A DNA stretch of 64,000 nucleotides from Candidatus Saelkia tenebricola (GTDB lineage: Bacteria > Omnitrophota > Gorgyraeia > Kaelpiales > Kaelpiaceae): assembly GCA_030765145.1 (NCBI GenBank), contig JAVCDA010000010.1:119344-183343 (forward strand), written 5' to 3'. Under the pieces are notes generated by a model. It did not search any database. It was not told the origin of the DNA and was given only the letters and a program-made list of their open reading frames with translations. Both the position numbers and the translations under genes were made by a program. This document shows positions 9,948 to 42,014 of the stretch, piece after piece. The stretch's first letter is position 1; every line of letters begins with the position of its first letter.

Positions 9948-10009
9948 TTTTATATTGGTTATAAGAACAACACAATCTTATCAGAAAATATTAAAATTCC
10001 AAGCAGAAA

Positions 10010-14119: not shown

Positions 14120-14698
14120 TTACTTTTCAAACTGAACATCGTCGAAATAAACAGTTCCTTCTTTAACCGGGATACGCCAGTCTTCAAAAACAACAACAAA
14201 CTCATCCATGTTGGTCAAATCGGAAATCCCAGCTATTTTAGCAAGAGAAATTTCAATTTTCTGCCATTTATCAGTAACCCCTGTAACGTAATATTTGCCA
14301 ACTTCGCCAATATTGTTTTTCAATTCAATCTTAAACAACGGGGTAAAACCTCTTTTAACATCCCCTTTTACCCAAAAAGTAAAAGTCTCATATTTTGACA
14401 CATCAGCTCCGTTCAGTTTCATCCAAAAACCGTTGTAAGCAGCATTTGGAGAATCAACATCATAATCAACCCTGAGACAAAATCCTTTACCATCTTTTGT
14501 CTCAACAGTGTTAAAACTTTCAATTGCGGTTTGTGAAAAATCCATAGGATCTCTATCCCAAGCACCAAAATCACCATTAACGTTATTGGGCTTAACACCG
14601 GAATCAAAATCTGCAATCGAAAACACATCTTCTAACGCACAAGCAGAGCCACCCGCTACTAACAAAAAACATCCGACTAACAAGCCAAACATTTTCAT
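14120..14698 (-). CDS. secreted single-domain protein, CBM-like domain paralog
   Basis: Start chosen at MKMFGLLVGCFLL, a signal peptide preceded by a GGAGGTG SD. Shares FGAWD.DP.DF, DYDVDSPN, VKGD.KRGF and VVFEDWR...KEGT.Y.DD motifs with the N-terminal domain of the hydrolase next door. Confidence 0.6.
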   Translation of the reverse strand: MKMFGLLVGCFLLVAGGSACALEDVFSIADFDSGVKPNNVNGDFGAWDRDPMDFSQTAIESFNTVETKDGKGFCLRVDYDVDSPNAAYNGFWMKLNGADVSKYETFTFWVKGDVKRGFTPLFKIELKNNIGEVGKYYVTGVTDKWQKIEISLAKIAGISDLTNMDEFVVVFEDWRIPVKEGTVYFDDVQFEK

Positions 14699-14779
14699 AC
14701 ACCCACCTCCTTTTTTTGAAATTCTATCTTTTTTACTTATGCCACAAAACACATCTTTTGTCAAGTCGATAAGAGACTG

Positions 14780-15985
14780 CTACACCATAGCATGCGTAAA
14801 AATATGTTGAATAACAAGGCTGACGGCACCTAAAGCAACCGCATTCTCTCCCAATTGCGTAGGAACAATGCGTACCTGATGACCGATTTCCTCAAATGTC
14901 TTGTCTCTAACAACCCTTTTGATCTCATCCAATAACACCGAACCTGCTCTTTCTATCCCACCGCCAATTACCACAACCTCGGGATTAAGCATCTGAATAA
15001 GATAGGCAATCCTAATACCCAATTCTTCCCCAGATTTTTTAACAAGTTCTATTGCAAGAGTATCTCCTTCCCTGGCTGCCTCAACTACAGATTTAAAATC
15101 TATTTTTCCCGCATCACCTCCGCAAAGTTCTAATATTTTAGAGTCAACGCCTTCTGTTATCACTGCTTTTTGTGCTTTTTCTTTCAATCCTAAATCTGCC
15201 TGCCAGCGGTCAAGGCCTTTAAAATTTTGTTTTTCCTGATCTGTTAAACCCGGCAAGCCTAACTCACCAGAACATCCTGTTGCACCGGAATAAATCTGAC
15301 CATTAATTATAATACCGCAACCGACTCCGGAGTACATAAAAACAAGGTTTTTCACTTCACTTTCAAGCTCAAACTCCCTCTCTCCAAAAGCTGCAACAGT
15401 AGCATCGTTTTCTACATACACAGGCATATTAAATTTTTGCTCTAACATATTTTTCAAGGTTGAGATGTAAATACTACCCATTTGTTCCGGCCAGCGAATA
15501 GTGCCTCCTTTTCTATCCACAATACCAGGAATACCGATACCAATACCTTTAATTTGACCTTCATCCAATTCTGATTTTTTAATAAGCTCCTCCACAATGT
15601 CTGTCAGAGCATCAATTAAAAACCCTTCCGCCCCTCCTTCTGGTCTGGGTTTTTTAATCTCCACAAGAACATTAGCCTTGAGATCCGTTATAATCCCAAT
15701 AATATTAACTAAGTCCAGCCCAACACCAACAATATAAGCAGCCTTAGGGTTAAGCTCTAAAACCACAGGACGCCTACCACCGGTAGAAACATCCAAACCG
15801 CCCTCTATTACCATACCTTTTTGAATATAATTATTTACATAATTAGAAACAGTAACGATGTTCAGCTCTGTTTCCTTTGAAATCTCAGTCCTGGTAATAG
15901 GTCCTTTTCTGCGAATTAAATCTAAAATTGAAAAATTCTTTCTCTCTCTATCCGCTAATACTTCCCCCATTGCCTCTACCATCAC
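14780..15985 (-). CDS. ROK family transcriptional regulator (N-terminal wHTH plus ROK sugar-kinase-like domain); zinc motif apparently degenerate
   Basis: HTH region ILDLIRRKGPITRTEISKETELNIVTVSNYV. Glycine-rich ROK sugar-kinase-like core. Only GCSGELG is present where CxCGxxGCxE is expected. Confidence 0.8.
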   Translation of the reverse strand: MMVEAMGEVLADRERKNFSILDLIRRKGPITRTEISKETELNIVTVSNYVNNYIQKGMVIEGGLDVSTGGRRPVVLELNPKAAYIVGVGLDLVNIIGIITDLKANVLVEIKKPRPEGGAEGFLIDALTDIVEELIKKSELDEGQIKGIGIGIPGIVDRKGGTIRWPEQMGSIYISTLKNMLEQKFNMPVYVENDATVAAFGEREFELESEVKNLVFMYSGVGCGIIINGQIYSGATGCSGELGLPGLTDQEKQNFKGLDRWQADLGLKEKAQKAVITEGVDSKILELCGGDAGKIDFKSVVEAAREGDTLAIELVKKSGEELGIRIAYLIQMLNPEVVVIGGGIERAGSVLLDEIKRVVRDKTFEEIGHQVRIVPTQLGENAVALGAVSLVIQHIFTHAMV

Positions 15986-17448: not shown

Positions 17449-18655
17449 CTAATCAGATAACATAACTGAATCATTTTCGGCAATCTGCATCTTAGGTAAA
17501 CTAAGTAGAATACTGGCTGCAGAGGTAACCTCTCTGACATCAATGACTTGAAGCTTAGCGATCAATGTGTTGCCTCGGTATATGGAAAATCCCATACCAA
17601 TTTGCACCCCATCTCTTCTGCCAATATCGATGATTATAAAACCTTCCTCTACATTAACAAAGACAACTCTTCCTTTAAGTAGCTCGTCTTTAATTTCTAT
17701 TCTGGGTAATTCTACAGCTTCGCCTTCAGTATCGTAATTTAGTTTTTTTATCTTTTCCAATGCCATCTCAAGATCCTGTTTTAATTTTGTAACCTCTAAC
17801 ACTTCGTCTTCCAAAACTCGATTAATATATCCAATCCTTTGATTGAATATTTCTTTTTCTTTTTTCTCTTTTTCGACATTCTGTTCTAACTGTGTAATTC
17901 TTTCGCTTATTTCCTTTTTTCTGTCCTGCGCCTGTGCAACCTTCATCTGAAGCGTATTTTTATCTCTTTGCATTTCTTCCACCTGCTTTATATATGAAAA
18001 CTTCTCTTTCTTCTCCTGCTCCAAAGATGCGCTTAAGGAAGACACTATCTTTTTAGTATCCTGAAACTTATTTTCTAAATTTTCTTTTTTATCCAATAGA
18101 TCATTTACAATATTATTTAAATTTTCTTTCTCCTTCTCAAACCTTGAAATCTCGCTATCTTTTTTCTCTAAAAGTCTTTCCAAACTACTAAGCCTTAATT
18201 CTAGATTGGATTTCTCCCGCAACAAATTTGACCAGAAACTGTCATCACCTGTGTTATTGTATTTTATATTCTCTTGGCTTGTAAAACTTGCTTTGACATC
18301 ATTCTTCTCCCGTACTAATCTAGCAACACTTTCCCGTAACCGCATATTTTCATCAGCCAGCTCCTTGAAGTTGTTTTCAGAAATAAGTTTTTCCTCCTCC
18401 ACTTTCGACAGATGTGTTTGATACTTATTAAGATTGGCCTGTATTTTTTCAATCTCTGACTTAAACTTGTCGAGATCAAACTCCAAGTCTCTATTTGTTT
18501 GATACCAAAGCACTTTTTCTTCTGTGTATCTGGAATAAATTTTTCTATTCTCTAACCCAAGCCAAACGGCAGAAATAACAGACACGCTTAAGAGCGTACC
18601 GCATAAAGAATAAATTACTGTTTTTACTGAGTCCGACATTTTCATATTGTTCTTG
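17449..18655 (-). CDS. membrane-anchored coiled-coil protein with a C-terminal small beta-rich module; last gene of the RND efflux operon
   Basis: Start taken at MKMSDSV, giving a 14-nt overlap with the upstream RND gene; the ORF-track start at 18792 lies inside that gene. One N-terminal TM helix, then about 280 aa of heptad-rich Glu/Lys sequence. The C-terminal GRVVFVNVEEGFIIIDIGRRDGVQIGMGFSIYRG block resembles the C-terminus of the OMF. Confidence 0.6.
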
Positions 18656-21600
18656 GTTTTGATATCCGCAAAATTTTTGTTACAACATATCGTACGTCTT
18701 CCATTATTATATACACACAGGGAATAACTAAAAGGGTTAAAATTGTTGAAACGCTCATCCCTCCAATAACAGTCTTTGCCAAAGGCGACCATAAATTGGC
18801 AGATTCGCTCCTGTCCACCGCCATGGGGATTAAACTACAAATTGTAGTTAACGATGTCATAAATATCGGTCTTATCCTGCTTTCGGCTCCTAAGAGCACT
18901 GCTTTCCTTAATTCCATCCCTTCTATTCTTAAAAGATTTATGTGATCCACCATAACTATAGCGTTATTAACAACAATACCTCCCAGCATTAACATGCCCA
19001 TCAACGCACCAATATTAATCGATGTACCAGTATAGTAGAGCGTAGGGATTACACCTATCGCCGCCAAGGGAACTGTAGTCATGATGATAAGGGGCTGAAT
19101 ATATGATTCGAAGAGAGACGCTAAAACCAAGAAAATCAGAATTAAAGCTACCCAAACTGCAAAGTTCAATTGCTTGTTATTCTCTTCCATCAATTCATAA
19201 TCTCCGCTAAAGCGATGTGAGTAATCATCCGGCATTTTAAAATCGCGAAGCGCTTCTTTGGATATTTCAATTGCCTTATCTAAAGAAAGAGCACCCCTAT
19301 TAGCGCTAACCTGAACCATTCTGGATTTATTCTTATGCCAAATCTCGCTAGGCGCAATATCAAATTTAAGATCTGCGATTTGCTTGAGAGGAACCTGAAT
19401 TCCGTTGCTGTTTACAAAAGTAAGGTTCTTTAAGTCTTTAAAACTATCTCGGCTTTCTTCTTCCATCCTCACCACTATCTCTACCTCTTTAGTCTTTGTA
19501 TGAAAAAAGGAGGCCCGCAAACCTCTTATTTTTCCATGCAACTGGTAGGAGATATCCTGGATAGTCAGCCCGTAAGTGCTTGCCTTATCTTGATCTATCA
19601 AAACACGAATCTCAGGCCTACCTTCTCTCATCCTTATCTTCTGATCCGTAATGCCTTCAACCGTACTTAATTTCTGCGCTATGCCCATGGCTATCTGCTT
19701 TAAAACATCATAATCATAACCATTTATATCTATAAAAATCTCGCTACTACCTACCTCCTGAGGCAATTCAAAATAAATAAAAGCGTCAAACTGTTTTGCT
19801 ATCTCATCCATCTTAGGGCGTAATTCCGTTATAATATCATCCGTCATCCGATACCTTTGAGAGAGAGGTTTTAGTTTTACATATACTTTCGAAGACCATC
19901 TTTCTATGCGAGAAGAAACAGTTTTAATCTCAGGAACTTCTCTCAAAATGCGCTCTACCATCGCAACAGCCTTATCAGACATCTCAAGGCGAGCACCCGT
20001 AGGCAATTCTACATGAGCGGTAAACTTGTTAAGTTCGGTAATGCCAATAAATTCCTTCCCTATTTGATTCCATAATGGCAACACAATTAAAAACACCGCT
20101 ACCATAAAAAACAAAAACTGATACCTTAATCGTAAAAAGCCACCCAATAGTTTTCTGTAAAATCTTCTGCTTTTTCTCACCTTGTCTTTACGCTTATTGA
20201 TAAATGGAATACCTCGACCAAGCTCCACCATAGATGAGGCTAAAGGCACCAGCGTTAACGCAACAAATAAAGATGCCAGCAAAGAATATACTACAGTCCA
20301 AGCCAAACCGCTATAAAGAATACGCATCTGTTTGCCTACAAACATAATTGGTAAAAATGCAACTACAGATGTAATGGTAGAAGCAACAATTGCAAGACTA
20401 ACTTCCTGCGCTCCATTTAAAGCTGCTAAACGCTTGTTAGCACCTGCCTCCTTTTTTTTAAAAATATTTTCTAATACAACGATTGAAGAATCCACCAACA
20501 TTCCTATCCCAAGTGCAAGCCCTGAGAGAGTCATAATATTTAAAGTCAAACCCTGCATAAACATTATTGTAAACGTTGCCATAACAGAAATTGGAATCGA
20601 AAGTGCAATAATAAAAGTCGGCGGCATATCGTGTAAAAATAACAGCAACACTATTACTGCCAGTGCACTGCCAAACATCAGAGATTTTCGCACAGTATCT
20701 ATGGCTTCTTGAACATACTCCGCCTGCTGGAAAGTAGGCCTGATGATCACGTCTTGAGGGATGATTTTTCTTATTTCCTCAAGTTCTTTGACTATCAACT
20801 TATTAACTTTGATAGTATTAGCCGTGGATTCTTTTTGAATATAAATGGAGACTACCGGACGAGCATCTACCCTTGATAAATCCATCGGGTCCAAAAATGA
20901 ATCCTTTATCTGAGCTACATCTTGAAGGCGTATCACAGAGCCCTGGGGTGTGAAACCCACTCCGATTCCTTTGATATCTTCTATTGTATTGAACTGCCCT
21001 AACAGCCTTATTAAGTACTCAATGCGTTTGCTTTCCAAATCACCGACTAAAATATCCAAATTGTTAGCTCCGACCATATCAATTAACTGCCCCAAAGATA
21101 TGTTGTAGGCTCTTAATGTTGATTCTTCTGTTTCTACTAAAATCTTTCGCTCTCTACCACCTGCAACCTCAATATTTGCTACCCCCTCCAGTCTTTGAAA
21201 CCTTGACTTAACTTTTTCGTCAACAATTCTGCGTAACATCTCCGGAGTATATTTTTCTCCGGTCACAGCAAGTATAACAATCGGAACATCAGTCTGCTGA
21301 TACCGAGCAATAACGGGCTTTTCAATTTCTTTGGGTAATTTATCTTTGACCCTGCCAAATTTTTCTCTCACCTCCAAAGAAGCAAAATCCATATTGGTCC
21401 CCGGCTCAAACTTTAAAATTACCCGCGATTCACCCTCTTCGGATATTGCAATCAATTCTTTCAGATTACTAACATCGCTCACCGCTTCTTCAACCGGCTT
21501 TGTGACCAAGCGTTCAACATCCGGAGATGGTATCCCACCTCTAATCCGTATAATAATACTAATGGTGTCATAGCTGTAATTGGGCATCAACTCTACTGGT

Positions 21601-21695
21601 AATCGAACTAAAGCAATATACCCGATAAGAACAATGCCTAAAAAAATCATTGCCATTGTAATCGGCCGTTTAATCGCAACGCTTGCTAATCCCAT
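18642..21695 (-). CDS. efflux RND transporter permease subunit (AcrB/HAE family), second of a tandem pair
   Basis: 1017 aa, 12-TM RND architecture with large periplasmic loops; conserved RND motifs. Confidence 0.9.
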   Translation of the reverse strand: MGLASVAIKRPITMAMIFLGIVLIGYIALVRLPVELMPNYSYDTISIIIRIRGGIPSPDVERLVTKPVEEAVSDVSNLKELIAISEEGESRVILKFEPGTNMDFASLEVREKFGRVKDKLPKEIEKPVIARYQQTDVPIVILAVTGEKYTPEMLRRIVDEKVKSRFQRLEGVANIEVAGGRERKILVETEESTLRAYNISLGQLIDMVGANNLDILVGDLESKRIEYLIRLLGQFNTIEDIKGIGVGFTPQGSVIRLQDVAQIKDSFLDPMDLSRVDARPVVSIYIQKESTANTIKVNKLIVKELEEIRKIIPQDVIIRPTFQQAEYVQEAIDTVRKSLMFGSALAVIVLLLFLHDMPPTFIIALSIPISVMATFTIMFMQGLTLNIMTLSGLALGIGMLVDSSIVVLENIFKKKEAGANKRLAALNGAQEVSLAIVASTITSVVAFLPIMFVGKQMRILYSGLAWTVVYSLLASLFVALTLVPLASSMVELGRGIPFINKRKDKVRKSRRFYRKLLGGFLRLRYQFLFFMVAVFLIVLPLWNQIGKEFIGITELNKFTAHVELPTGARLEMSDKAVAMVERILREVPEIKTVSSRIERWSSKVYVKLKPLSQRYRMTDDIITELRPKMDEIAKQFDAFIYFELPQEVGSSEIFIDINGYDYDVLKQIAMGIAQKLSTVEGITDQKIRMREGRPEIRVLIDQDKASTYGLTIQDISYQLHGKIRGLRASFFHTKTKEVEIVVRMEEESRDSFKDLKNLTFVNSNGIQVPLKQIADLKFDIAPSEIWHKNKSRMVQVSANRGALSLDKAIEISKEALRDFKMPDDYSHRFSGDYELMEENNKQLNFAVWVALILIFLVLASLFESYIQPLIIMTTVPLAAIGVIPTLYYTGTSINIGALMGMLMLGGIVVNNAIVMVDHINLLRIEGMELRKAVLLGAESRIRPIFMTSLTTICSLIPMAVDRSESANLWSPLAKTVIGGMSVSTILTLLVIPCVYIIMEDVRYVVTKILRISKPRTI

Positions 21696-21698
21696 AAA

Positions 21699-24600
21699 TT
21701 ATCCCTTAAATTCATACCACCTACCCGGACCATTAGGCCCTTTAGCAATTATTATTTCTTTGTCCACCAGGTCTTTAAGGTCTCTCGCCGCGGTGGCAAC
21801 TGAAATTTTAAAAATATCCTGACATTGCCGCCGCATAATTCTACCGTGTTGCTTTATATACAATAAAACTTCTTTTTGTCGTTTGTTTAATTCCGGGAAC
21901 TTCTTGAAAACATCCCTCTCTAACACTTTTTCCTCTATTTCAGGTTCAGATAATATAATTTTTTCTTCCATTATTTCTTGGACAACTTCTATTGTTTTTG
22001 CTTTCTCAAGAGGAGATTCTTTTTCGATCATTTTTACCGCAACTAAATATAGCGCCGGGACAACAAACAATGTAAGAATCGTTGAAGAAGATAACCCTCC
22101 AATAACAGCAATCGCCATAGATGCTCTTAGCTCTGCTCCTTCACTTAAACCTAAAGCTAGAGGGATTAGGCCTAACGTAGTAGTGAGTGCAGTCATTAAT
22201 ATTGGCCTTAGCCTATGTTGGCACGCTTCTATTGCCGCATCATATGGATTAACACCTTCTGCCCTTAGTCCATTAATACGGTCTAGCAATACGATGCCGT
22301 TATTAACAACAATACCTCCTAAAATTATCACACCTAAAAATACCACTATATTTAAAGTGGTGCCTGTAAGTAGAAGGGCTATACTTATTCCGATTAATGA
22401 AAGTGGCACTGAAAACATTATTACGAAAGGCTGCCAAAGAGACTCAAACTGTGCCGCCATAATCATATATACCAAAACAATAGATAGTATAAGAGCAAAC
22501 ATTAAATTCTTGAACGATTCTGCCATTTCTTTTTTCTCTCCGCTCATTTTAACCATATAATCTTTTGGCACTTCAATTGCCTCAATAACATTTTCTATAT
22601 CCTTGATAATTTCACTGAACCTTCTTTTATAAACATTGGCGGAAACCACAACAGTCCTTTCTTGGTCTAAACGTTTAATTTGGCTGGGCCCAATTCCTTT
22701 TGCAAGATAAGCAACATCGGCTAGAGAGACTTCCACCCCTAAGGGAGAATGAATCAAAATATTTCTGACTTTAGCTATATTTTCTTTATCTTCTTCCCGA
22801 AGTCTTGTTCTGATATCATATTCCCTGCCTTCTTCTTTATATTTTGACGCTACATACCCTTTAATTGCAGCCTGAGTAGCCAAAGAAATACTGTTAACCG
22901 AGAGATTATATAGTGCAGCTTTTTTCTTCATTACATTCACTTTTATTTCAGGCTGAGCCGGAGCAAGGTCACTCTTAATATCGTATAAGCCGGAAATATG
23001 TTCAAACCGAGCGATTAAATTCTCAGAAAGAGTTCTTAAGGTGTCTATCTCCTTCCCTTTTAGCTCTATGGTAACAGGCTTACCTCCCTGCATAGCAGCC
23101 TTAAAAATTGTCTCCTGTAAAATATATTCTATTTCCGCCTTTTCTAAATCAGTACCTATTAAATCTGTTTGCAATTGCTGAACCACTCCCTGACTCTTTC
23201 TGTATTCTGCGTCTCTTTTAGACATCTTTTTAAGATTGACGACAATTTGTGCTTGATGTGAGCCCATAGTTGCCACAGCTCCGCCATACGCTTTTTCCTT
23301 ACTAGAACCAATTGTCACACCTACACCTTTTATGTCTGGATAACCGAGTAAAATACGCTCTATTTTTTTAACAACTCCATCTGTAACTTCAATCCTGCTA
23401 CCTGTAGGCATATCTATCTTAATCAAAAATTCACGCTGATCTACTTTGGGCATTAATTCTCTATCAACCGTATTCAGCAAGTAAAAAGCACCCATTGTTA
23501 TCAAGATGATAATTGCAAAATAAAAATATTTGACTTTAAGAAAAGCTTTCAGGCTCCGAGCATATGAAGATTGCAATATCCGCATCCAAGCCCATTCTTT
23601 TCGAACAGTCTTTTCGGTTTTAACTTTAGCTGCAAGTCTTGGGATTAAAGATAACGCTACAGCCAATGATGCTAAAAGCGCAAACGTTACGGTAAAAGCT
23701 AATTCTCTGAAAAGTTGCCCCGCAACTCCTTCTACAAACATAAGCGGCAGGAACACAGCAATGGTTGTAAAGGTAGAAGCTGAAATTGCAGTGGCTACCT
23801 CACTAGCTCCAGAAGATGCCGAAAGAGATGGAGATTCACCCATCTGTCTATGGCGAAAAATATTTTCAATAACAACAATTGCATTATCAACCAACATTCC
23901 TACTCCAAGCGCAAGCCCCCCTAAAGACATTATGTTTACCGAAAGACCTCTGAAATACATCAAGCTAAAAGTAAGCAGAATTGAAATAGGAATTGAAAGC
24001 GCAACTATAACAGAGCTGTAAATGTTCATAAGAAACAAGAACAAGACTATAAATGCCAATACTCCGCCTTGAAAAGCTGCGTCTCTCACCCCATTTATAG
24101 AATCTTCAATAAATTTGGACTGATCATACACAATCTCTATTTCTGCTCTACCTTTAATCCTTTCTCTAATTTCATCCAATTTTTTATTAACATCTTTAAC
24201 GACTTTTATTATATTGGCTCCTGCCTGCCTCTGAATTCTAATTGAAATATTTTCTCTTCCGTTATACCGCGATATGTTAGTTAAATCTTTCAACGAATCA
24301 ACAACTTTTCCTAAATCCTGAACATAAATAATTCTTTTATCAGATGATTCTCCTTTCATCTGCCTAATATATTCTTCATATTGCGTTTTAGGTGGGTCAA
24401 CTTCCTGCACATCAACAACTACATTTCTTATTTCTTCGACAGCCTCAAATTCTCCCATCGTTCTAATCATGTATTCATAGAACGTTTCTTTTATTGTCCC
24501 GGCAGGAAAAGTAAAATTAGTTTGCTTAATTGCTTCGGCAACTTTTAAAATCGGAATTTTATTGGCATATAATTTACCTTGATCCAATTCCACTAAAATT

Positions 24601-25145
24601 TCTCTTTCTCTTCCCCCCACAATACCGGCCGAAGCTATGCCTTCGATTTTTTCAAGCTCATCTTTGATTTCTTTTCTGCACAATTCCCGCAATTGCCTGG
24701 ATGGTATATCACCTTTTACAGAAAGAATCGCAACCGGAATTTCAAAAGGATTAAACTTCATAACAATCGGATCTTCAGAGCCTAAAGGCAATCTCTCTTT
24801 AACGAGATCAATCTTTTCTCTTACACCAAGTGAGGCAAAATCCATATTGGTGCCCCAATCGAAATCTAAGATTATAAGCGATAAACCTTCTTTAGAAAGA
24901 GAGGAAATTTTTTTAAGCCCGTTTACCGTTCCTACCGCTTCTTCCATTATTTTTGTTATTAACGTTTCTACTTCCTCAGGAGAAGCATTCTCATAAGTCG
25001 TAACAATCGTAATTTGCGGATAGGAAATCGAAGGGTACAATTCCTGGGAGAGCTTCATCCAAGAGATAACACCTAAAAGCCCTATTCCTAAATAGAACAT
25101 TGTAATTGTTACTGGTCTCCTAATAGAAAATTCAGGCAGGTGCAT
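21699..25145 (-). CDS. efflux RND transporter permease subunit with about 105-aa C-terminal cytoplasmic extension resembling a winged-helix DNA-binding domain
   Basis: 1148 aa. RND core through about aa 1040. The tail ...KRQKEVLLYIKQHGRIMRRQCQDIFKISVATAARDLKDLVDKEIIIAKGPNGPGRWYEF has an HTH-like pattern seen in Fic/RecG-type wHTH tails. Confidence 0.85.
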   Translation of the reverse strand: MHLPEFSIRRPVTITMFYLGIGLLGVISWMKLSQELYPSISYPQITIVTTYENASPEEVETLITKIMEEAVGTVNGLKKISSLSKEGLSLIILDFDWGTNMDFASLGVREKIDLVKERLPLGSEDPIVMKFNPFEIPVAILSVKGDIPSRQLRELCRKEIKDELEKIEGIASAGIVGGREREILVELDQGKLYANKIPILKVAEAIKQTNFTFPAGTIKETFYEYMIRTMGEFEAVEEIRNVVVDVQEVDPPKTQYEEYIRQMKGESSDKRIIYVQDLGKVVDSLKDLTNISRYNGRENISIRIQRQAGANIIKVVKDVNKKLDEIRERIKGRAEIEIVYDQSKFIEDSINGVRDAAFQGGVLAFIVLFLFLMNIYSSVIVALSIPISILLTFSLMYFRGLSVNIMSLGGLALGVGMLVDNAIVVIENIFRHRQMGESPSLSASSGASEVATAISASTFTTIAVFLPLMFVEGVAGQLFRELAFTVTFALLASLAVALSLIPRLAAKVKTEKTVRKEWAWMRILQSSYARSLKAFLKVKYFYFAIIILITMGAFYLLNTVDRELMPKVDQREFLIKIDMPTGSRIEVTDGVVKKIERILLGYPDIKGVGVTIGSSKEKAYGGAVATMGSHQAQIVVNLKKMSKRDAEYRKSQGVVQQLQTDLIGTDLEKAEIEYILQETIFKAAMQGGKPVTIELKGKEIDTLRTLSENLIARFEHISGLYDIKSDLAPAQPEIKVNVMKKKAALYNLSVNSISLATQAAIKGYVASKYKEEGREYDIRTRLREEDKENIAKVRNILIHSPLGVEVSLADVAYLAKGIGPSQIKRLDQERTVVVSANVYKRRFSEIIKDIENVIEAIEVPKDYMVKMSGEKKEMAESFKNLMFALILSIVLVYMIMAAQFESLWQPFVIMFSVPLSLIGISIALLLTGTTLNIVVFLGVIILGGIVVNNGIVLLDRINGLRAEGVNPYDAAIEACQHRLRPILMTALTTTLGLIPLALGLSEGAELRASMAIAVIGGLSSSTILTLFVVPALYLVAVKMIEKESPLEKAKTIEVVQEIMEEKIILSEPEIEEKVLERDVFKKFPELNKRQKEVLLYIKQHGRIMRRQCQDIFKISVATAARDLKDLVDKEIIIAKGPNGPGRWYEFKG

Positions 25146-25173: not shown

Positions 25174-26424
25174 TTAAAATAATTTTTCCTGTGTTTCTAT
25201 GATTTTTATCCCGGTACCGGCTGAAAATCTTTTCATACCCGGAGTCTCTATAACAATCAGAGCGCCTTCTGTAAGCCCCTTTTTAATAACAGCATAATCT
25301 GTCGTAATATACTCTACGGTAACTGGAGCATATTTAATCTTTTCTTCTTCTATCATCGCAGCGTAATAAGCACCTTGTTGAATTGATACAGATGAACTCG
25401 GTACAACCAGAGCGTCTTTCTTTCTGAATACAGCAACATCTACCCGGGCAAACATTCCGGGTTTTAACAGTTTGCCTGGGTCTAAAACTCTGACCCTGAT
25501 GTTTAATGTGCGTGTTCTTTCATCAATTGCAGGGAAAACAGTTTCCACATAACCAAAAAACACTCTTGTGGGATAGGTGTCCACCTTGACTTTTACTTTC
25601 TGCCCGGATTTAATTTTAAACACATCTTTTTCTATGACCCCTATTTCTACAAATGTATTGGCGGCATCTAACAAAGTAAAAATAATGTCATTAGGGGTTA
25701 TAAATTCGCCGACATCTTTCTCTTTTTTGTTGATAATACCTGCTTGAGGGGCTTTCATATCAAGTTTTTCTAATTTGACCTTGCTTAGTTGAAGTTCTTT
25801 TTTGCTTATATCTATTTTTGCCTTGGATACTTCAAGCTCCGCCTGCAATTGATCCAGCCTGGCTTTTATAATCGCCCCAATTTCATAAAGCCTTTTGACT
25901 ACTTGATATCTTTTAAGAGCCGCTTTATATTCAGCCTCTGTAGCATTCAATTTTGCCTGAGCCCATTGAATTTCAAGCTTCACATCTTTTGAATCAAGGG
26001 TTGCTAACAAATCTTGTTTTTTGACTTTATCTCCTTCTTTAATTTTGATATTTTTTATTACCCCATTGACTTCAAATCTAAGCTCTATCTCCGGAATATT
26101 CCTAACAGTCCCTACCGCAGGAAGTTCATCGGTAAAATCCGTGAATGCAAGCTTATAAGCCTTAATGGGGATGCTTTGCTCCGGTTGCTGCGGCAGAAGA
26201 GATATCGGCGCTTTGGGTTCGGATTTTTCCTCTTCTTTTTTAAAAGGAGTTTGCTTTTTATCTGCCACTTTAGATGAAGCAGTCAAATCCGAGGAAGGAG
26301 CAAAAAGCCTACGCACACCGACAAACAGTAAAATTACAATAATAATGTTCACTGCAATGATAACTAAACTACGCAGGGTAAATATTTTTTTAATAACGGA
26401 TAAAATGTTGGTATTTTCTTTCAT
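25174..26424 (-). CDS. efflux RND transporter periplasmic adaptor subunit (HlyD/MFP family)
   Basis: N-terminal TM anchor, coiled-coil hairpin, lipoyl and beta-barrel segments. 4-nt overlap with the OMF gene. Confidence 0.85.
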   Translation of the reverse strand: MKENTNILSVIKKIFTLRSLVIIAVNIIIVILLFVGVRRLFAPSSDLTASSKVADKKQTPFKKEEEKSEPKAPISLLPQQPEQSIPIKAYKLAFTDFTDELPAVGTVRNIPEIELRFEVNGVIKNIKIKEGDKVKKQDLLATLDSKDVKLEIQWAQAKLNATEAEYKAALKRYQVVKRLYEIGAIIKARLDQLQAELEVSKAKIDISKKELQLSKVKLEKLDMKAPQAGIINKKEKDVGEFITPNDIIFTLLDAANTFVEIGVIEKDVFKIKSGQKVKVKVDTYPTRVFFGYVETVFPAIDERTRTLNIRVRVLDPGKLLKPGMFARVDVAVFRKKDALVVPSSSVSIQQGAYYAAMIEEEKIKYAPVTVEYITTDYAVIKKGLTEGALIVIETPGMKRFSAGTGIKIIETQEKLF

Positions 26425-28667
26425 TGTAATATCTCCACGTTATCTCCTATTCTCAATCCTTTAAAATCCCTGTCTATGCCTTTCTCCAGATAACAGGCTG
26501 CTGTGTTATTATCAATTCTAGCAGGAACAAGCAAAGCATATTCTTGGCCATTTCTATAAACCATGACTTTGCTGTTGGAACTTAACCCCTTGCCTTGACC
26601 AATATTGAGTATTGCCATTCCATACTGATTGTTAACTCCAATAATCCTTCCTTGAATACCCGTAGGAATAATTTGGGTTATTTCTTTCTTAAACTCAGGG
26701 AGCTTGAAAGGAGTGTAGCTTACACTCGTTGCAGGATGATTGCTGAAGTTTTCCCAAGCAGCAATAACAGGTTTTTCTGTCACAAGGCTCATATAGCTTT
26801 CCACTCCGCAAGCTTTGGAGATACTGGAAAGAGCAATGTAATAGCCCAGCAAAGCCCTGTTATAATTTACCTCTTCGTTGGCATAGTCTAAATACCCCTG
26901 CAAAAGCTCTGTGATGTTTGCCTCTTCTACTTTCATTCTACCTTCAGTAACTTTTAATCTTCTACTATGGAACTCCAATTTTTGAAGAGATGTTTCAATC
27001 TGAAAAAGAGAGGAGACATAATTTGCATATGATCTCTCAACTTCGGAAATAATAGATTCTTCCGTTTCCACTTCTTCGTTGACTGCTTTCAAAAATTCTA
27101 CGCGTGCTGTTTTTTCATCGGAAGCCATACTCAACCTATCAACAATAGACCATTCCAAAGATTTGGTAAAAGATTTTGTCGTGTCTTCTGTGCTAAACAT
27201 TCCCACAGGTCTATTCTGCTGCACCACCGAAGCATCCAAAGAGCTGTTGCCGATAGGTCTAGACACTTTTAATCCTAGATACCAGCTATCACGGAATTCT
27301 TCAGGTTCTGATTCATAATCTTCAGCTATTTTGCCGACTTTACCGGTCAAACTAAGATGAAATCTGTTTTTTGATTTTGCAATCTGTTCGTTCAAATTGT
27401 TGAATTGTGTTACTAATTGACGTATCTTAAGTTCCGACCTCTGTGTTTTAGCAATTCTTAAGGCCGTCTCTAATCCTATATTAACTTTTCCGAAAGGCAA
27501 CCAATTGACCAATGTAATCTCCTCGTCGCCAGGTAAATTTAACGTCTGCCTGAACGCTAACTCGGATAGAGAAAGTTCTTTCTGAGTCGAAACAAAAAGA
27601 AACTTTATCTGTTGATAAGACGAAGATAGCTGTTTATATTCAACCTCTGTAATCAAACCTTGTTGATATAGCAATTTGCCCATTGCTAATAATTTATTAG
27701 CTTCAGCCAATAGTTTATTAAAAGTGTCCCAGTTCATTCTGTTCAAAACCACATTGTAAAAATTTCTTTTAAGTTCCAGGGTATAATCTGTAGAAAGTTG
27801 CTGACGTTCCATCAAAGCAAGTTCCATATTAATCTTAGCCTGCTCCAGTTTATATTGCAGTTCGCCGCCATATGAAAGAGGTTGTTCAAATTCAATTTCA
27901 GCTGATTTAGATATAATATTTACCTTACCTGTTGTTTCACCTACCGTATCAACTAATCGAACAACTGCTGTGGGGAAAAACTGTCTTCTTGCTTCCTGAG
28001 CTTTCATTTGTGCAAGTTCATATTGTTCGGTTGCAATTTGTAAAGGCCTATAATTTTCAATTCCTATATCAATCCACCGCTGCCATCCCAGTATAGCCTG
28101 TTGCCATTCTTCTTCATCTTGAGGACCTATTTTTTGCTCAGGAGTAAAACTAAATGATTTAGGTAATTCTGTTTCTTCTTCTTTACTATTTTGACTAAAA
28201 ACCACTTCTTTAATTTCGGGAAAAATTATCTTAATAGTATTATCATCAGAGATAATATTATGTTTGAACTCCTTGCTGCCCTTAATAACAATCCCATCAA
28301 CCTTTCCTGCTTCACTATCTCCAGGTTCATAGCCCGGATAAAATTTTACAGTTGCATATTGTAATCCAAACGAGTTCATCTCTAACTTGAATTTTTCCAT
28401 ACAAAGTAAATTACTCCCAATAAGATCCACAAAAAGAGTTTGCTTGTCCTCCATCCAGTAAGTGTGATATAAAGGGCTGCTATTAAATGATATGGTTATT
28501 GCAAACTTTTTATCTAAAAACCCTTTTTGGATATCTTTAAGAATAACCGTATCATTAACATGATACGGTTGGGAATAAGCAAATGATACGGTTACTAAAA
28601 ACCAGATTACGAATGATACGGTTGTTAATTTCTGATTTTTTTTCTCTATCATTCTTAACATAACCAT
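26421..28667 (-). CDS. TolC-like outer membrane efflux factor with N-terminal AMIN-like extension and extra C-terminal beta module
   Basis: The central 430 aa show the two-repeat OEP/TolC pattern. The N-terminal 200 aa include an AMIN-like segment (FAITISFNSSPLYHTYWMEDKQTLFVDL). The C-terminal 110 aa (GRIIGVNNQYGMAILNIGQG...VMVYRNG) are similar to the C-terminus of the coiled-coil protein. Confidence 0.8.
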   Translation of the reverse strand: MVMLRMIEKKNQKLTTVSFVIWFLVTVSFAYSQPYHVNDTVILKDIQKGFLDKKFAITISFNSSPLYHTYWMEDKQTLFVDLIGSNLLCMEKFKLEMNSFGLQYATVKFYPGYEPGDSEAGKVDGIVIKGSKEFKHNIISDDNTIKIIFPEIKEVVFSQNSKEEETELPKSFSFTPEQKIGPQDEEEWQQAILGWQRWIDIGIENYRPLQIATEQYELAQMKAQEARRQFFPTAVVRLVDTVGETTGKVNIISKSAEIEFEQPLSYGGELQYKLEQAKINMELALMERQQLSTDYTLELKRNFYNVVLNRMNWDTFNKLLAEANKLLAMGKLLYQQGLITEVEYKQLSSSYQQIKFLFVSTQKELSLSELAFRQTLNLPGDEEITLVNWLPFGKVNIGLETALRIAKTQRSELKIRQLVTQFNNLNEQIAKSKNRFHLSLTGKVGKIAEDYESEPEEFRDSWYLGLKVSRPIGNSSLDASVVQQNRPVGMFSTEDTTKSFTKSLEWSIVDRLSMASDEKTARVEFLKAVNEEVETEESIISEVERSYANYVSSLFQIETSLQKLEFHSRRLKVTEGRMKVEEANITELLQGYLDYANEEVNYNRALLGYYIALSSISKACGVESYMSLVTEKPVIAAWENFSNHPATSVSYTPFKLPEFKKEITQIIPTGIQGRIIGVNNQYGMAILNIGQGKGLSSNSKVMVYRNGQEYALLVPARIDNNTAACYLEKGIDRDFKGLRIGDNVEILQ

Positions 28668-28786: not shown

Positions 28787-29536
28787 CTATTCGGGGATTT
28801 GTTCAATACTTAACAATTCTTCCTGCCTAACCATGATATGCGCTAATCTTTCCAGCTCCCTTATTAATCGTTCCTTTTCTTTAGGGTCTTTTAGAGGCGG
28901 TATTTTTATGATTACTTTATTCTGTCCAAATATCACACTCACTAAAATATCAACTTCATACTCCAATAAAGTATCCTTCTGTTTAATTTCTTGGGGTATT
29001 TTTTCGATAACGCTCTTCGACTTTTGATCGGATACTGCTGATTCCTTGTCTATTTTTACTCTTAAGAGATATTGCTGACTTTGTCCAACATTGTCTTCCT
29101 GTTTTCTTTTGAAAGCAGATTGCATGATAATCGGGATAGATTCCTCTATCTCTTTTATTAAATCCGCAGCTTTAATTGTTCCTAATATTTCTTTATTTCT
29201 ACCCGTTTCTGAAAATTCAATTTCAATAGATTCAACACCAAAAACTTCTTGCGGTAAAATATACGCGTGATAATCTCTGCCCAACGGCGAGTCTACAGTA
29301 AAAGGCTGTTCGGTTCCAGCATAGGGATAATACAAGACTTCGCTTTCTACTTTCTTTAACGGAGAGTATATAGGCTTACTGAATTTGTCTTTGCTGCCCA
29401 AGCTATAATCCCATTCCACAGGTGGTGCGGCATACACCTTGTTACAGATGCATATAGAACTGGATAGAAAAACAGCAACGTGGCAAAAAACTTTCAGATT
29501 TTTCTTATAAGTGAGGCAATGCAATTTTATTACCAT
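28787..29536 (-). CDS. hypothetical secreted protein
   Basis: ORF with an internal signal-peptide-like segment (VFCHVAVFLSSSICICNKVYA), so the real start may be downstream of the track start. No family recognised. Confidence 0.45.
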   Translation of the reverse strand: MVIKLHCLTYKKNLKVFCHVAVFLSSSICICNKVYAAPPVEWDYSLGSKDKFSKPIYSPLKKVESEVLYYPYAGTEQPFTVDSPLGRDYHAYILPQEVFGVESIEIEFSETGRNKEILGTIKAADLIKEIEESIPIIMQSAFKRKQEDNVGQSQQYLLRVKIDKESAVSDQKSKSVIEKIPQEIKQKDTLLEYEVDILVSVIFGQNKVIIKIPPLKDPKEKERLIRELERLAHIMVRQEELLSIEQIPE

Positions 29537-31136
29537 ACTCTTTACGCAATTCTTTTAGAGTTTTTACTAACTCTTCTATCTCTTTTCTGCTACCGTCTGC
29601 ATTTAGGCTTTGCGCAGCTGCTAATAAGATATCCTCGTCTTCTGCGTTGTCGGTACCTACAATTTTCTGCCTGGCTTGCGTCAGCACATTAATCTTGGCA
29701 GCATCATAGTTAAGCCCGTCAATTATCACTTGCGTCGCAACATCCCAGCATGTTTGAACAAAGCCAGTCATATCGACTGCTTGCATAATATCACTTAGAT
29801 CGTCATCGCGCAAGGCTTTCCAGACAATTTCTGCATATTTCTTTGCCAGTGTTACATCCCCGCTAGTCCCAGGCATAATATTGGGTGATGTTTGACTTAT
29901 TGGGCTAAGCCCTGTTAAAGGGTCAAATTCATCCACTTCAACAATCCCTATTCTAAAGAAATCCTGACTACCGTCTTGCTCATGAACAGCTACCAAGGAA
30001 TTAACAACTCTGTCATTTTCATCGTACTCATAGAATTTATAAGAAGTAGTTACTCTATTGGGGGCTTGATCATCATTATAGTGTACTGCTTCAACTACAG
30101 AGGGCAAATATTTTAAACCTCCCTCCTGATCATAAGAAATATGAAAATCCAATACATTTGTGTCTTCCTCATAGCTATATGAGGTTTCACCGCTATCTAT
30201 AGTAACCAAACGGTGATAACTCCTAGCTTCTCTATACGAAAAATCCATATCTAAGACATCTTCAGTGATATATTGGGTGACACCCCATTGATCGCGAAGT
30301 TCCTGATACATCTTAAGTGCATAGCCAAAAGCATTAGATTCTTTATTATTGAAAGCCCACCAGTCTCCTGCACATTCTGAATATTTCATATAAAGGTAGG
30401 AAGGGGCATGATAAACATATGCCGTAGATGCATCATTCGAATCAATCTGTGCATAAGTTGGCGTCAATTGTTTGGAAAAAATCCAATCCGGAAAATGCGT
30501 GCTTTCGTCTCGAAGAGATACATGCAATGGCCTTGTCGTCACATTACCCAGCTTATCTTCGCTAGACATATTAAATGTAAGGGAAAAACCTTTGTAGGCA
30601 TGTTTGCCTGAAGTTTCTTCAATCTTTTTTATTACCTCTTCTAGATCCTCTTTGTTTTGGACAAACTTGTTAGCAAAATATTTCAATATTTTCGTATTAG
30701 TGCCCGAATATGTAATAGAACCGTCTTCTGCAATGCTTTTTCCAGGCGTAGCAGATCTAACAGGTTGATTAAAAAGCTCTGCACGCCTGTTTTCTATAAC
30801 TCTAAAACGCTCCCTGACATAAGTTAAAATCTGTAAAGCGGCACGTAATCCCTGATAGCTTTTTTTGGCATCTTCTCCTGTTTTTCTTTTTATCAGCATT
30901 CCGCGTACCTGCTGCTCTCTGTCAAGATATTCTTCCAAAGACAATTCCGGAGAAAGTGCTTTATAGATTTCTGCAATAGATCCAAATTCTGCTGAATCCA
31001 AGGGCTGCTCATTTGCAGTACTTTCATTAGCATAAGATGCTATATGATATGAAACCCCACCAACAAAAATAGACATAATTATAAAGTGTTTTAAAATGTT
31101 TTTCTTCTTCACATCATATTTATACCATATATACAT
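29505..31136 (-). CDS. hypothetical secreted protein (543 aa)
   Basis: N-terminal signal/anchor (IIMSIFVGGVSYHIASYA). No family recognised. Confidence 0.55.
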   Translation of the reverse strand: MYIWYKYDVKKKNILKHFIIMSIFVGGVSYHIASYANESTANEQPLDSAEFGSIAEIYKALSPELSLEEYLDREQQVRGMLIKRKTGEDAKKSYQGLRAALQILTYVRERFRVIENRRAELFNQPVRSATPGKSIAEDGSITYSGTNTKILKYFANKFVQNKEDLEEVIKKIEETSGKHAYKGFSLTFNMSSEDKLGNVTTRPLHVSLRDESTHFPDWIFSKQLTPTYAQIDSNDASTAYVYHAPSYLYMKYSECAGDWWAFNNKESNAFGYALKMYQELRDQWGVTQYITEDVLDMDFSYREARSYHRLVTIDSGETSYSYEEDTNVLDFHISYDQEGGLKYLPSVVEAVHYNDDQAPNRVTTSYKFYEYDENDRVVNSLVAVHEQDGSQDFFRIGIVEVDEFDPLTGLSPISQTSPNIMPGTSGDVTLAKKYAEIVWKALRDDDLSDIMQAVDMTGFVQTCWDVATQVIIDGLNYDAAKINVLTQARQKIVGTDNAEDEDILLAAAQSLNADGSRKEIEELVKTLKELRKEYGNKIALPHL

Positions 31137-31148
31137 ATAAAAATCAAG

Positions 31149-31727
31149 TTACCTGAGATAAAAATTATCGAAGTATGTCCGACCCCCTGTTTGATCAATA
31201 TACCGTTTGTCTATAAATACATTGATTTCAACGAGTTCGGATAAATTCTCCAACTTGAGGCTTTTCAAGGGGATTTCTACCTTATACCAATCATTCCCTG
31301 TTTTAGCGTTCATTACCGTTACGATTTTACCTTTTTTATCTTCAAAGGTTATCCCGATGATTTTGGAATAGCCTACTGCCGGCTCCCCTTTAACCCAGAA
31401 ACCAAAATATTGATACCCGCTAAAATCATATCCTGAAACATGGAGCCAGATTCCACCCACCAAATCATTGTCAGAGCGAAAATCGTAATCCAATGCGAAT
31501 GAATGACCCTCTTCCCCATATTTTACGAGACTGGACTTCGAGCCTACAAAGGTAGTATGTCTATCCTCCATAAATTCTTCCCATACACCGCCTTCAAATG
31601 TTTCCTGCTCAAAATCCTGTAACAGAAAAATCTTTTCCTTTGTTTCTGTCAATTCCTCTGTATACACTTTATCTGCGCAAAAAAGAAAAACTATTCCGAC
31701 CGTTAAAACAGCTATTCTTATATTCAT
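31149..31727 (-). CDS. secreted single-domain protein, third paralog of the CBM-like domain
   Basis: Signal peptide MNIRIAVLTVGIVFLFCA. Shares DYD(V/F), G.W......DFS.YQ.F.FWVKG and TYFDN motifs with ORFs at 14120 and 11487. Confidence 0.6.
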   Translation of the reverse strand: MNIRIAVLTVGIVFLFCADKVYTEELTETKEKIFLLQDFEQETFEGGVWEEFMEDRHTTFVGSKSSLVKYGEEGHSFALDYDFRSDNDLVGGIWLHVSGYDFSGYQYFGFWVKGEPAVGYSKIIGITFEDKKGKIVTVMNAKTGNDWYKVEIPLKSLKLENLSELVEINVFIDKRYIDQTGGRTYFDNFYLR

Positions 31728-35387: not shown

Positions 35388-37814
35388 TTATTCCTCTTTC
35401 ACAACCTTTGCAAACGAAACCACTTTATCTTTTGGGGCTGTCTTAACAACTCTTACCCCTGAAGTGCTTCTTCCTATGGTTCTTATGTCTTTAAGGGAAG
35501 TTCTTATAATCTGCCCACTCTGTGTCATTAAGACAATGTCATCATCATCATTAACGACCTCCGCTGCTACTACATTGCCTGTTTTATCTGCACGTTTCAT
35601 ATTAATAACACCCTTGCCCGCACGGGATTGAATTCTGTATTGCTCAACCGCCGTCCGTTTTCCAAACCCCTGCTCACTAATGGTCAATATGCTCTCTTCC
35701 CTGGCAACACAACACATGCTTACCACCTGATCTCCTTTGCCAAGGTTAATACCCTTGACTCCCTGAGCTCCTCGGCCCATTGATCTAAGCTGTTTTTCTG
35801 CAAAACATATAGATTGGCCTTTTCGCGTAGCTAAAAAAACATAATGATGGCCATCGCTAACTTCTGCTGCAATCAAGCGATCCTGCTTTTTTAAAGATAT
35901 CGCTATAATCCCTCCTTTACGAGGGTTTTTGAATTCCTCCAGTTTCATGTTTTTCACAACACCGTTCGCTGTCGCAAGTATTAAATACCTTGTGGCTGGA
36001 AAATCACGCACTGGAATAGATGCCGTTACTACCTCTTCTTTGGCAAGTTGTAAAATATTAACTATGGCTTTACCACGTGCCGTTTTCTGCGCTATGGGAA
36101 TCTCATGAACTTTTAACCAGCAAGCTCTCCCTTGATTAGTAAAGAAGAGCATATAATCATGGGTGGAAGCTATAAAAAGATGTTTTACAAAATCGCCTTC
36201 TTTCAGATTCATACCAATAACTCCTTTGCCACCTCTATTCTGTCTTCTATAGGAGGAAATGGGTTGCCTTTTTATGTATCCCGAACTTGAAATTGTCACC
36301 ACCATATCCTCTTCTGTAATCATGTCTTCGATTCTTATTTCTTTAACCTCTTCTACTATCGTTGTAAGCCTCTGGTCTCCATAGCGTTCCTTTATCTCAA
36401 TAAGTTCTTCCTTGATTACTTGAACAACTTTTTTCTCACTTTGGAGAATACTGTTGTAATATGCGATTTTTTTGATTAATTCCAAATATTCTTTATCCAG
36501 TTTTTCTGTTTCCAGTCGCGTTAAGCGCTGAAGCTGCATTTCTAAAATTGCCTGAGCCTGTATCTCTGTTAATTTTAACTGTTGCATCAATCGTTCTTTT
36601 GCCTCGGGTGTACTTTGAGATTTTTTAATTAATGCGATTACCTTATCTATGTTGTCCAACGCTATTTTTAAGCCTTCTACAATATGTGCCCGCTTTTCAG
36701 CTCTTGCTAGTTCAAACCGGGTCCTTCTTAAAACAATTTCTTTCCTATGGCTAATGAATTCTACCAGCATCTGTTTTAAGCTCAACACCTTTGGTCGCCC
36801 ATGTACTAATGCCAGCAAAATAATACCAAAAGAAACCTCCATCTGAGTATGTTTATACAACTGATTTAATATTACTTCTGCATTTTGATCTCTTTTCAAT
36901 TCAACTAAAATACGTATTCCCTCTTTATCGGATTCATCTCTTAAGTCTGAAATTCCTTCTACCTTTTTATCTTTTATGAGAATTGCAATTTGTTCAATAA
37001 GATTAGATTTGTTAACCTGATAGGGAATTTCTTTTATTATGATTGCAGCCTTCCCGCCTTTAAGCTGTTCTGTATAGGCTTTTGCCCGAATTTTGATAAT
37101 ACCTTTACCTTGGGCATAAGCTTCTTTCAGTCCTTTGCTTCCGTAAAGGATACCTCCCGTCGGAAAATCCGGCCCCGGGATATACTGCATTAACTCTGTA
37201 CATGAGATGTCAGAATTATCCACATAAGCAATAGCTCCTTCTATCGTTTCTTTAATATTGTGGGGAGGAATGTTGGTTGCCATACCAACCGCTATCCCGG
37301 AAGATCCGTTAATAAGAAGGTTGGGAGTTCTACTTGGCAACAATATCGGCTCTCGTAAGCTTTCATCAAAATTAGGCCTGAAATCCACTGTATCCTTATC
37401 TATGTCTTCCAGCAACTCTTGAGAAATAGCAGCAAGACGAGCTTCCGTATAGCGCATAGCTGCAGCAGAATCTCCATCTATAGAGCCAAAATTGCCCTGG
37501 CCATCTATTAAAGGGTATCTCATTGAAAAATCTTGTGCCATGCGCACTGCAGCATCATAAACAGCTGTATCGCCATGAGGATGATATTTTCCCAGTACTT
37601 CACCTACAATTCGAGCACATTTTTTATACGGCTTGCGAGCATCTAACCCCAGTTCTTTCATAGCATAAAGAATTCTTCGATGCACCGGTTTTAATCCGTC
37701 TCTCACATCTGGTAAAGCCCTGCCAACAATAACGCTCATAGCATAGCTGATATAAGAATCCTTCATTTCATCTTTGATGTCTATGTGTCGTATTTTCTGA
37801 TCTCTGCTATACAT
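35388..37814 (-). CDS. gyrA: DNA gyrase subunit A
   Basis: GyrA N-terminus with AAMRYTE active-site Tyr region and C-terminal beta-pinwheel repeats. Confidence 0.95.
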
Positions 37815-37837
37815 CTTCTTCCCTCGTTTTTATTTGC

Positions 37838-40668
<2,831 letters not shown>

Positions 40669-40669
40669 T

Positions 40670-41776: not shown

Positions 41777-42014
41777 TAGTTGTGTTGTTTTCTAATAAGT
41801 ATTTGTTTTATAGTATGTATTAGTAGTGTTTGTGTAAAAGTGGATAATAATATAAACATATATGTATCAATGGTTTATTGATAAAAGTGTATCTGTGTAA
41901 AATGTTGTTAAAAAGGTGGTTCTTTTTTTTATTGATGTATTTATCCACATATCCACATTTTATCCACAAGCAATCTATGTGTTTTTAAGGATCTTTTCCT
42001 CAAGTTTATCCACA
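41777..42014. other. candidate oriC: AT-rich unwinding region plus DnaA-box cluster
   Basis: Perfect TTATCCACA at 41941-49, 41960-68 and 42006-14. ATATCCACA at 41949-57. Inverted TTATCCACT at 41839-47. An AT-rich stretch at 41777-41940. Confidence 0.7.

Follow-up and report, generated by a model that had tools for sequence, protein, structure and literature searches.

The efflux operon and its fifth gene

The window analysed here is the whole stretch of 64,000 nucleotides (nt) from Candidatus Saelkia tenebricola (assembly GCA_030765145.1, contig JAVCDA010000010.1, positions 119,344 to 183,343 of the forward strand). It carries an operon of the resistance-nodulation-division (RND) efflux type in which two different proteins, an outer membrane factor (OMF) of the TolC family and an anchored coiled-coil protein, end in the same kind of small beta-barrel. 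The five genes all lie on the minus strand, in the order OMF, membrane fusion protein (MFP), RND transporter 1 (RND1), RND transporter 2 (RND2) and coiled-coil protein. Their features, with protein lengths in amino acids (aa), are as follows.

26421..28667, minus: OMF gene, 748 aa, with signal peptide, AMIN-like domain, TolC-like body, linker and module
28218..28556, minus: AMIN-like N-terminal domain of the OMF, residues ~38-150, beta-rich
26664..26790, minus: linker from the TolC-like body to the module, about 40 aa, boundaries approximate
26424..26663, minus: module of the OMF, a C-terminal FlgT_C-like six-stranded beta-barrel, about residues 669-748
25174..26424, minus: MFP (periplasmic adaptor), 416 aa; Pfam HlyD_D23 E 2e-32, HlyD_3 E 8e-19
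21699..25145, minus: RND transporter 1, 1148 aa; ACR_tran E 1e-239
nt 21747-21881, minus: HTH_DeoR domain at the C-terminus of RND1, residues 1089-1133; 21.6 bits against a cutoff of 21
18642..21695, minus: RND transporter 2, 1017 aa; ACR_tran E 6e-229
17449..18645, minus: coiled-coil gene with corrected start, 398 aa
nt 18556-18621, minus: transmembrane (TM) anchor of the coiled-coil protein, residues ~9-30
17452..17685, minus: module of the coiled-coil protein, a C-terminal FlgT_C-like beta-barrel, about residues 321-398

The genes are joined by 4-nt overlaps or short gaps. The stop of the OMF gene and the start of the MFP gene overlap as ATGA (26421-26424), and the same overlap is found between RND2 and the coiled-coil gene. 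With an OEP protein, an HlyD_D23 protein and two ACR_tran proteins encoded in one operon, the system is a tripartite RND efflux pump. The OMF matches Pfam OEP (PF02321) in two stretches with 85.2 bits against a cutoff of 22 (E 6.5e-24), which places it in the TolC family; orthologues were found in loci L001-L016 and L024. A sequence-only reading of this DNA had described one of the two proteins as a TolC-like channel and the other as a membrane-anchored coiled coil, and both descriptions hold; the coiled coil is long and its anchor N-terminal. The OMF linker is bounded by the module and by the end of the region conserved in the homologue P0066; the alignment there is poor and gapped, and no Pfam family matches the linker.

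The N-terminal domain of the window OMF has no match to Pfam AMIN (PF11741) at E <= 1, being too divergent for the model. The aligned domain of a 37%-identical OMF (P0066, locus L005) scores 21.9 bits against the AMIN cutoff of 20.5, and that of L012 matches with E 2.7e-6; it is on these homologues that the window domain is called AMIN-like. The best match of an OMF N-terminal-domain profile among the Protein Data Bank (PDB) sequences is the AMIN region of PilQ (3jc8_Qa), a weak one at E 0.068.

The coiled-coil gene had been read as an open reading frame (ORF) of 447 aa (17449-18792). That mechanical ORF is too long and overlaps RND2 by 150 nt. The true start is the ATG at 18645-18643, which overlaps the RND2 stop TGA (18644-18642) as ATGA. 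Since the corresponding Met, just ahead of the hydrophobic segment, is where the orthologue in L001 begins, and since the ATGA overlap falls at this position, the protein is 398 aa long. In the family alignment it consists of a short N-terminus, a hydrophobic anchor of ~22 residues (Kyte-Doolittle score 1.85), ~290 aa of coiled coil, a VELPxI linker and the module. The coiled coil is interrupted by a conserved motif, FWSNLLREK, near residue 180. It matches many families of coiled-coil type, for instance SMC with E 1.4e-9. From the N-in signal-anchor pattern across the family, and by analogy with FlgT and TsaP, which are periplasmic, we infer that the coiled coil and its barrel lie in the periplasm. 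The L016 orthologue (10001-11191, P0016) has a weak precomputed match to PF27870 'T1-F', which was not seen in the local Pfam scan.

The helix-turn-helix (HTH) domain of RND1 is cytoplasmic and follows a low-complexity linker, and the fusion is kept in L001, L012, L016 and L024. A pump subunit might in this way carry a DNA-binding domain tethered to the membrane, perhaps to regulate the system's own expression.

The two C-terminal modules are homologous

The two tails are, with near certainty, homologous copies of a six-stranded beta-barrel of ~77 aa that belongs to the FlgT C-domain family, lacks the finger seen in TsaP, and is carried by the OMF and by the bitopic protein of the fifth gene. 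The peptides first quoted for the two proteins are their true C-termini. The proposal that they share a module of about 70 aa was right as to homology, and the length is now ~77 aa in both proteins, at residues ~669-747 of the OMF and ~321-396 of the coiled-coil protein.

Direct comparison already relates the two tails. Pairwise BLASTP gives E 4e-5 with 27% identity over 55 aa. Searched against 520 six-frame segments of the window, each tail is the other's top non-self match (E ~0.01), with the runner-up at E 0.14 to 2. An hhalign comparison of two 2-sequence profiles returns a probability of 89% and E 2e-6 over 59 columns. Profile comparison had been set beforehand as the test on which the relationship would stand or fall, and a significant relationship was found.

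The likeness is most apparent when the two families are kept apart. A profile of four tails was searched with HMMER against 1.84 billion cluster representatives and recruited 3,254 of them at E <= 1e-3 (147 at E <= 1e-10); only the best 150 of these matches were looked at. The recruiting profile was mixed, and for this reason separate profiles were made from OMF tails only and from coiled-coil tails only. Each detects nearly all of the 150 best matches. A hidden Markov model (HMM) built from coiled-coil-tail recruits, with OMF-like sequences removed, matches the window OMF tail with 47.4 bits and E 2.4e-14 over model positions 3-77. Conversely, the HMM from the OMF side matches the window coiled-coil tail with 75.8 bits and E 3.4e-23. 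The next background ORF reaches only E ~1. Neither the six-frame segment search, nor the cross-HMMs, nor a later module search found a third copy in the 64-kb window.

A recent duplication of the neighbouring coiled-coil tail onto the OMF was also considered and is unlikely, the two being only 21-27% identical to each other. It is opposed as well by the modules of the unrelated proteins P0024, P0035, P0057 and P0123, which share 40% identity or more with tails of the OMF type.

Fold and family of the module

Sequence matches, to FlgT_C relatives and to TsaP, and the predicted fold both place the module in the family or superfamily of the FlgT C-domain. Pfam FlgT_C (PF16538) is matched at E <= 0.01 by 82 of 149 top representatives, the best with E 6.3e-12; P0060, for example, scores 39.6 bits and P0038 32.1 bits. 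The relatives that match FlgT_C are detected by each tail family independently. The window tails themselves are farther from the model, whose gathering score is 27 bits: the coiled-coil tail reaches 18.1 bits (E 0.0039) at model positions 4-38 only, and the OMF tail has no match at E <= 10. When the tails were scanned against Pfam and NCBIfam, no match reached the curated level. A word-index homology search found one relative per tail and an 83-sequence profile five, with almost no names and no Pfam annotation among them. Against PDB sequences, the 83-sequence profile matches TsaP of M. xanthus (3jc8/3jc9) with E 4e-7, followed by TsaP of P. aeruginosa (6ve2_O, E 0.026) and FlgT (3w1e and 8z5n, E 0.8). 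Thus a single entry, the type IV pilus machine 3jc8, supplies the best PDB sequence match of each accessory domain of the OMF, with PilQ AMIN at the N-terminus and TsaP at the C-terminus.

AlphaFold2 predicts both tails with good scores, the OMF tail with a predicted local distance difference test (pLDDT) of 91.9 and a predicted template modelling score (pTM) of 0.81, and the coiled-coil tail with pLDDT 94.8 and pTM 0.82. The strands at positions 6-13, 18-21, 34-39 and 42-52 are common to the two. The final strands lie at 57-61 and 77-81 in the OMF tail and at 57-64 and 75-78 in the coiled-coil tail. In Foldseek searches with the OMF tail, the sole two matches below E 1e-3 are FlgT 8z5n and 3w1e, with TMq 0.73, and the barrel can be superposed on the FlgT C-domain. 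Behind FlgT, the structural neighbours that rank next (F1/V1 crowns, HerA barrels and MFP beta-barrels) all sit in ring assemblies. The module had been likened to small barrels of the OB, SAF or NfeD type; it is none of these.

The domain family is already known, and the window module is a new member of it without a finger. FlgT-C and the tandem FlgT-like domains CI and CII of TsaP are described as beta-rolls from which a finger protrudes, and the ring contacts of TsaP are made by these fingers. Compared with the C-domain of FlgT, the Vibrio H-ring protein (PF16538; 3W1E, 8Z5N), the window tails are shorter (~77 aa against ~86 aa), fall below the Pfam cutoff and are not joined to the FlgT N and M domains. 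TsaP (3JC8/3JC9, 6VE2) is the best sequence-profile match among solved structures, as given above. Its chain carries LysM at the N-terminus and the FlgT-like domain twice in tandem, each time with a finger of ~20 aa, whereas here single finger-less copies are found on two different proteins. No LysM match was obtained in either window protein.

In the recruited proteins the module is usually C-terminal. Tandem arrays of 2-4 copies are frequent, and the largest number of matched stretches in one protein is 12; a protein of 3,344 aa has that many. Barrels were seen on VIT-VWA proteins (in two copies), on a BlaR1-type M56 sensor protease, on an extracytoplasmic function (ECF) sigma fusion and on TPR proteins (P0017, P0038, P0103, P0125, P0134). 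The barrel is a widely reused domain, mostly missed by current annotation. Faint MreC matches occur in 13 of the top representatives (149 scanned).

Conservation of the pairing

Genome and metagenome scans and contig look-ups yielded 26 loci. The five-gene order and both modules are kept in all six operons that are long enough: those of the window, L001, L007, L012, L016 and L024. In L012 the order is retained though the OMF is 32% and the coiled-coil protein 27% identical to those of the window, and in L024 it is retained though the downstream genes are completely different. The tail is present in every OMF of the clade whose C-terminus is on the contig. The only OMF without it is that of L015, which has 26% identity and lies on a short contig. 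The contig of P0066 ends inside an RND gene and gives no information on co-occurrence. Within the 276 kb of DNA searched, and in L024-L026, the module is confined to the OMF and coiled-coil protein types. The OMF and coiled-coil genes are co-transcribed and co-inherited.

The coiled-coil protein also has paralogues with the module, of 386-413 aa and 22-29% identity, all with an N-terminal anchor. In L020, L021, L022, L025 and L026 they follow a ROK or PilZ-ROK gene and often precede genes for a LacI-type regulator or TPR proteins. In a neighbour-joining tree the pump-linked coiled-coil proteins, that of L012 included, form one clade apart from the ROK-linked ones. The simplest reading is that the linkage to the pump arose once and was then kept. 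The constant length of the paralogues suggests a spacer or ruler, and the ROK neighbourhood recurs. The window too has a ROK regulator (14780-15985, minus), two genes downstream of the coiled-coil gene.

The public names in both protein clusters are from Candidatus Omnitrophota, and all are 'hypothetical protein'. The labels conflict in part: three of four records of metagenome-assembled genomes (L001-L004) read 'uncultured Planctomycetia bacterium', while members of the P0006 and P0016 clusters read 'Candidatus Omnitrophota/Omnitrophica bacterium'.

Proposed docking of the barrels and alternative explanations

Tripartite RND pumps are usually described as OMF, adaptor and transporter, and how the channel is positioned relative to the peptidoglycan and the inner membrane is debated. 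In the conserved operon described here the channel bears two accessory domains, one of which recurs on a dedicated fifth protein, and both accessory modules are known from ring-forming parts of the flagellar and pilus machines. The shared barrel suggests that the coiled-coil protein is a fifth component of the pump, not described before, which would dock onto the channel. Homologous FlgT-type barrels together with their docking into a collar or strut are the best overall explanation of the data, one that we hold tentatively and put somewhat short of an even chance. The direct docking of the barrels, taken by itself, is plausible but rather less likely than not. The earlier suggestion that the two proteins bind each other or the same partner draws indirect support from the co-inheritance of both modules in six operons, from the tight gene junctions and from the precedent of TsaP.

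The C-terminus of TolC-family proteins lies in the periplasmic equatorial region, as follows from the TolC fold. Periplasmic barrels of this kind could act as modules of protein-protein assembly. The coiled coil, anchored in the inner membrane, would extend upward, and its barrel would pack beside the OMF barrels, of which the trimer has three, suspended at its equatorial region. The packed barrels would form a collar or strut that tethers and positions the outer-membrane channel above the heteromeric RND pump, and the channel would be attached to peptidoglycan through the AMIN-like domain. The proposed arrangement would resemble the tandem FlgT-like domains of TsaP that belt the PilQ secretin, and FlgT-C that scaffolds the T ring under the flagellar LP/H rings. 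TsaP CI and CII contact each other within and between subunits, and the result is a belt of seven subunits around PilQ. For the T ring, FlgT-C serves as a scaffold through contacts with MotY and FlgI.

A more elaborate version would have the TolC-like channel held in the manner of a secretin, pinned to peptidoglycan by the AMIN-like domain, with the three OMF barrels alternating with barrels of the coiled-coil struts in a mixed collar. It would make a five-component Omnitrophota efflux machine whose strut, of fixed length, sets the distance between the membranes, and a ring in the style of TsaP and the H ring would have been recruited to a TolC-family pump. We regard this version as improbable, although it deserves mention.

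The comparison with TsaP has its differences. In that system paired FlgT-like domains belt an outer-membrane channel in a peptidoglycan-anchored assembly. The TsaP channel is a secretin, whereas here it is a TolC-like trimer, and the candidate for peptidoglycan binding is the AMIN-like domain on the channel itself. Like PilQ and the cyanobacterial AMIN-domain TonB-dependent transporters (10.64898/2026.07.30.741596), the OMF is an outer-membrane channel with an extra domain at its N-terminus, here an AMIN-like one. Unlike them, the carrier is a TolC-family protein, and the window copy is too divergent for Pfam AMIN. The pump also resembles the heteromeric tripartite pumps of the MdtABC-TolC type in that a single operon encodes the OMF, the MFP and two distinct RND proteins. 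Three of its features are not described for such pumps in the literature searched: the extra domains at both ends of the OMF, the DeoR-type HTH on the cytoplasmic C-terminus of an RND subunit and the coiled-coil fifth component.

Several points weigh against the docking of homologous barrels. The window tails have no finger: the TsaP match is split around an insertion of ~23 aa between model positions 42 and 43, and the AlphaFold2 models of both tails have a tight turn at the finger position, between strands 34-39 and 42-52. The two tails are ~21-27% identical and, within the family, are not each other's closest relatives. The module is promiscuous, its 3,254 representatives including VIT-VWA proteins, BlaR1-type M56 sensors, ECF sigma fusions and TPR proteins. 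In other Omnitrophota (L020-L022, L025, L026), coiled-coil proteins of almost the same length that carry the module follow immediately on a ROK-family gene, and no pump is encoded within 10 kb of them; therefore this type of protein needs no pump encoded in cis. As to geometry, we infer both the periplasmic orientation and the extended shape of the coiled coil, and the break near residue 180 could give a hairpin, in which case the barrel would lie near the inner membrane.

Alternatively, the two barrels may share a third partner without touching each other. Each would bind the same ligand in the periplasm, for which the beta-barrel ring of the MFP hexamer is the most plausible candidate and peptidoglycan the other, and the two proteins would be recruited to the assembled pump independently. 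This is unlikely, though it stands best among the alternatives. The sources on TsaP and FlgT report no peptidoglycan-binding role for FlgT-like domains, and in TsaP this role is assigned to the LysM domain. The OMF moreover already has an AMIN-like domain that could serve for peptidoglycan.

It is also conceivable, at rather long odds, that there is no specific link. The module would then be a generic periplasmic adaptor common in the phylum, and the coiled-coil protein a general spacer or ruler of the envelope that came to be co-transcribed with the pump by happenstance in one clade. The number of representatives and their many architectures agree with this, as do the paralogues, whose near-constant length at such low identity suggests a spacer and many of which stand after ROK genes without a pump. 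Nevertheless, the pump-linked clade has kept the linkage down to 27% identity and through a complete change of downstream genes, always with a tailed OMF. The junctions are tight, with the ATGA overlap in the window, and about 150 kb of flanking DNA holds no further copies of the module.

A divergent MreC, with its TM anchor, coiled coil and beta-barrel, would explain the layout of the fifth protein without any relation to the pump, yet this is very improbable, and membership in the MreC family was rejected. The window protein has no match to MreC (PF04085) in Pfam and NCBIfam scans, and its single barrel of ~77 aa stands against a Pfam barrel-core model of 147 positions, about twice as long. 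FlgT ranks above MreC in every structural search. The genomic context differs as well: the gene belongs to a pump operon, and neither mreB nor mreD is among the annotated genes nearby. As for a chance or compositional likeness of two short beta-rich tails, the low raw identity (27% over 55 aa) is all that speaks for it, and the cross-family HMM matches of E 2e-14 and 3e-23 across the full domain, over a background of E ~1, together with the same predicted fold and the same top structural neighbour, make it next to impossible.

Should the barrels of the channel and the coiled-coil protein dock as proposed, the operon would present a new way of bracing an efflux channel across the envelope, and the FlgT/TsaP module would have been reused outside motility systems. 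No flagellar gene is among the genes annotated in the window. In the searchable literature, whose coverage is incomplete, we found no description of four features: a TolC-family OMF with an AMIN-like head (nor of AMIN on any TolC-family protein) and a FlgT-type tail, a coiled-coil fifth subunit with the same barrel, the heteromeric RND pair in such a system, and the fusion of an HTH domain to an RND transporter. Apart from the mechanism, 'hypothetical' proteins that combine a coiled coil with this barrel, which number in the thousands, can now be given a family name, and a gene start has been corrected.

Other features of the window

Three genes lie directly upstream of the OMF on the minus strand (28787-29536, 29505-31136 and 31149-31727) and have no Pfam match. 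Their order beside the OMF is kept in L001, L003, L007, L008, L009, L011, L013 and L014, and in the distant L012 no homologues of them were detected. These genes may encode additional components of the system.

The region belongs to the core chromosome, with glmS, gyrA, gyrB, dnaN and dnaA at 32.5-43.3 kb. The genes dnaA, dnaN, gyrB and gyrA stand in a row on the minus strand (35388-43324). Because the gene strand switches beyond the dnaA row, with plus-strand genes from 44092, the replication origin probably lies in the gap at 43.3-44.1 kb.

At the start of the window, Pfam gives no match at E <= 1e-4 for two large adjacent plus-strand ORFs (12-2144 and 2132-6502; 710 and 1456 aa). A 214-aa protein (14120-14764, minus) and the N-terminal part of an 854-aa glycoamylase/CBM9 protein (11487-14051, minus) appear by eye to share a similar domain of ~150 aa, with the motifs GAWD.DP.DF.Q and Y.L.V.YDVDSPN.A.NG.W.KL. 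The L016 orthologue of the 214-aa protein is recorded as CBM_11, and the 192-aa protein upstream may be related.

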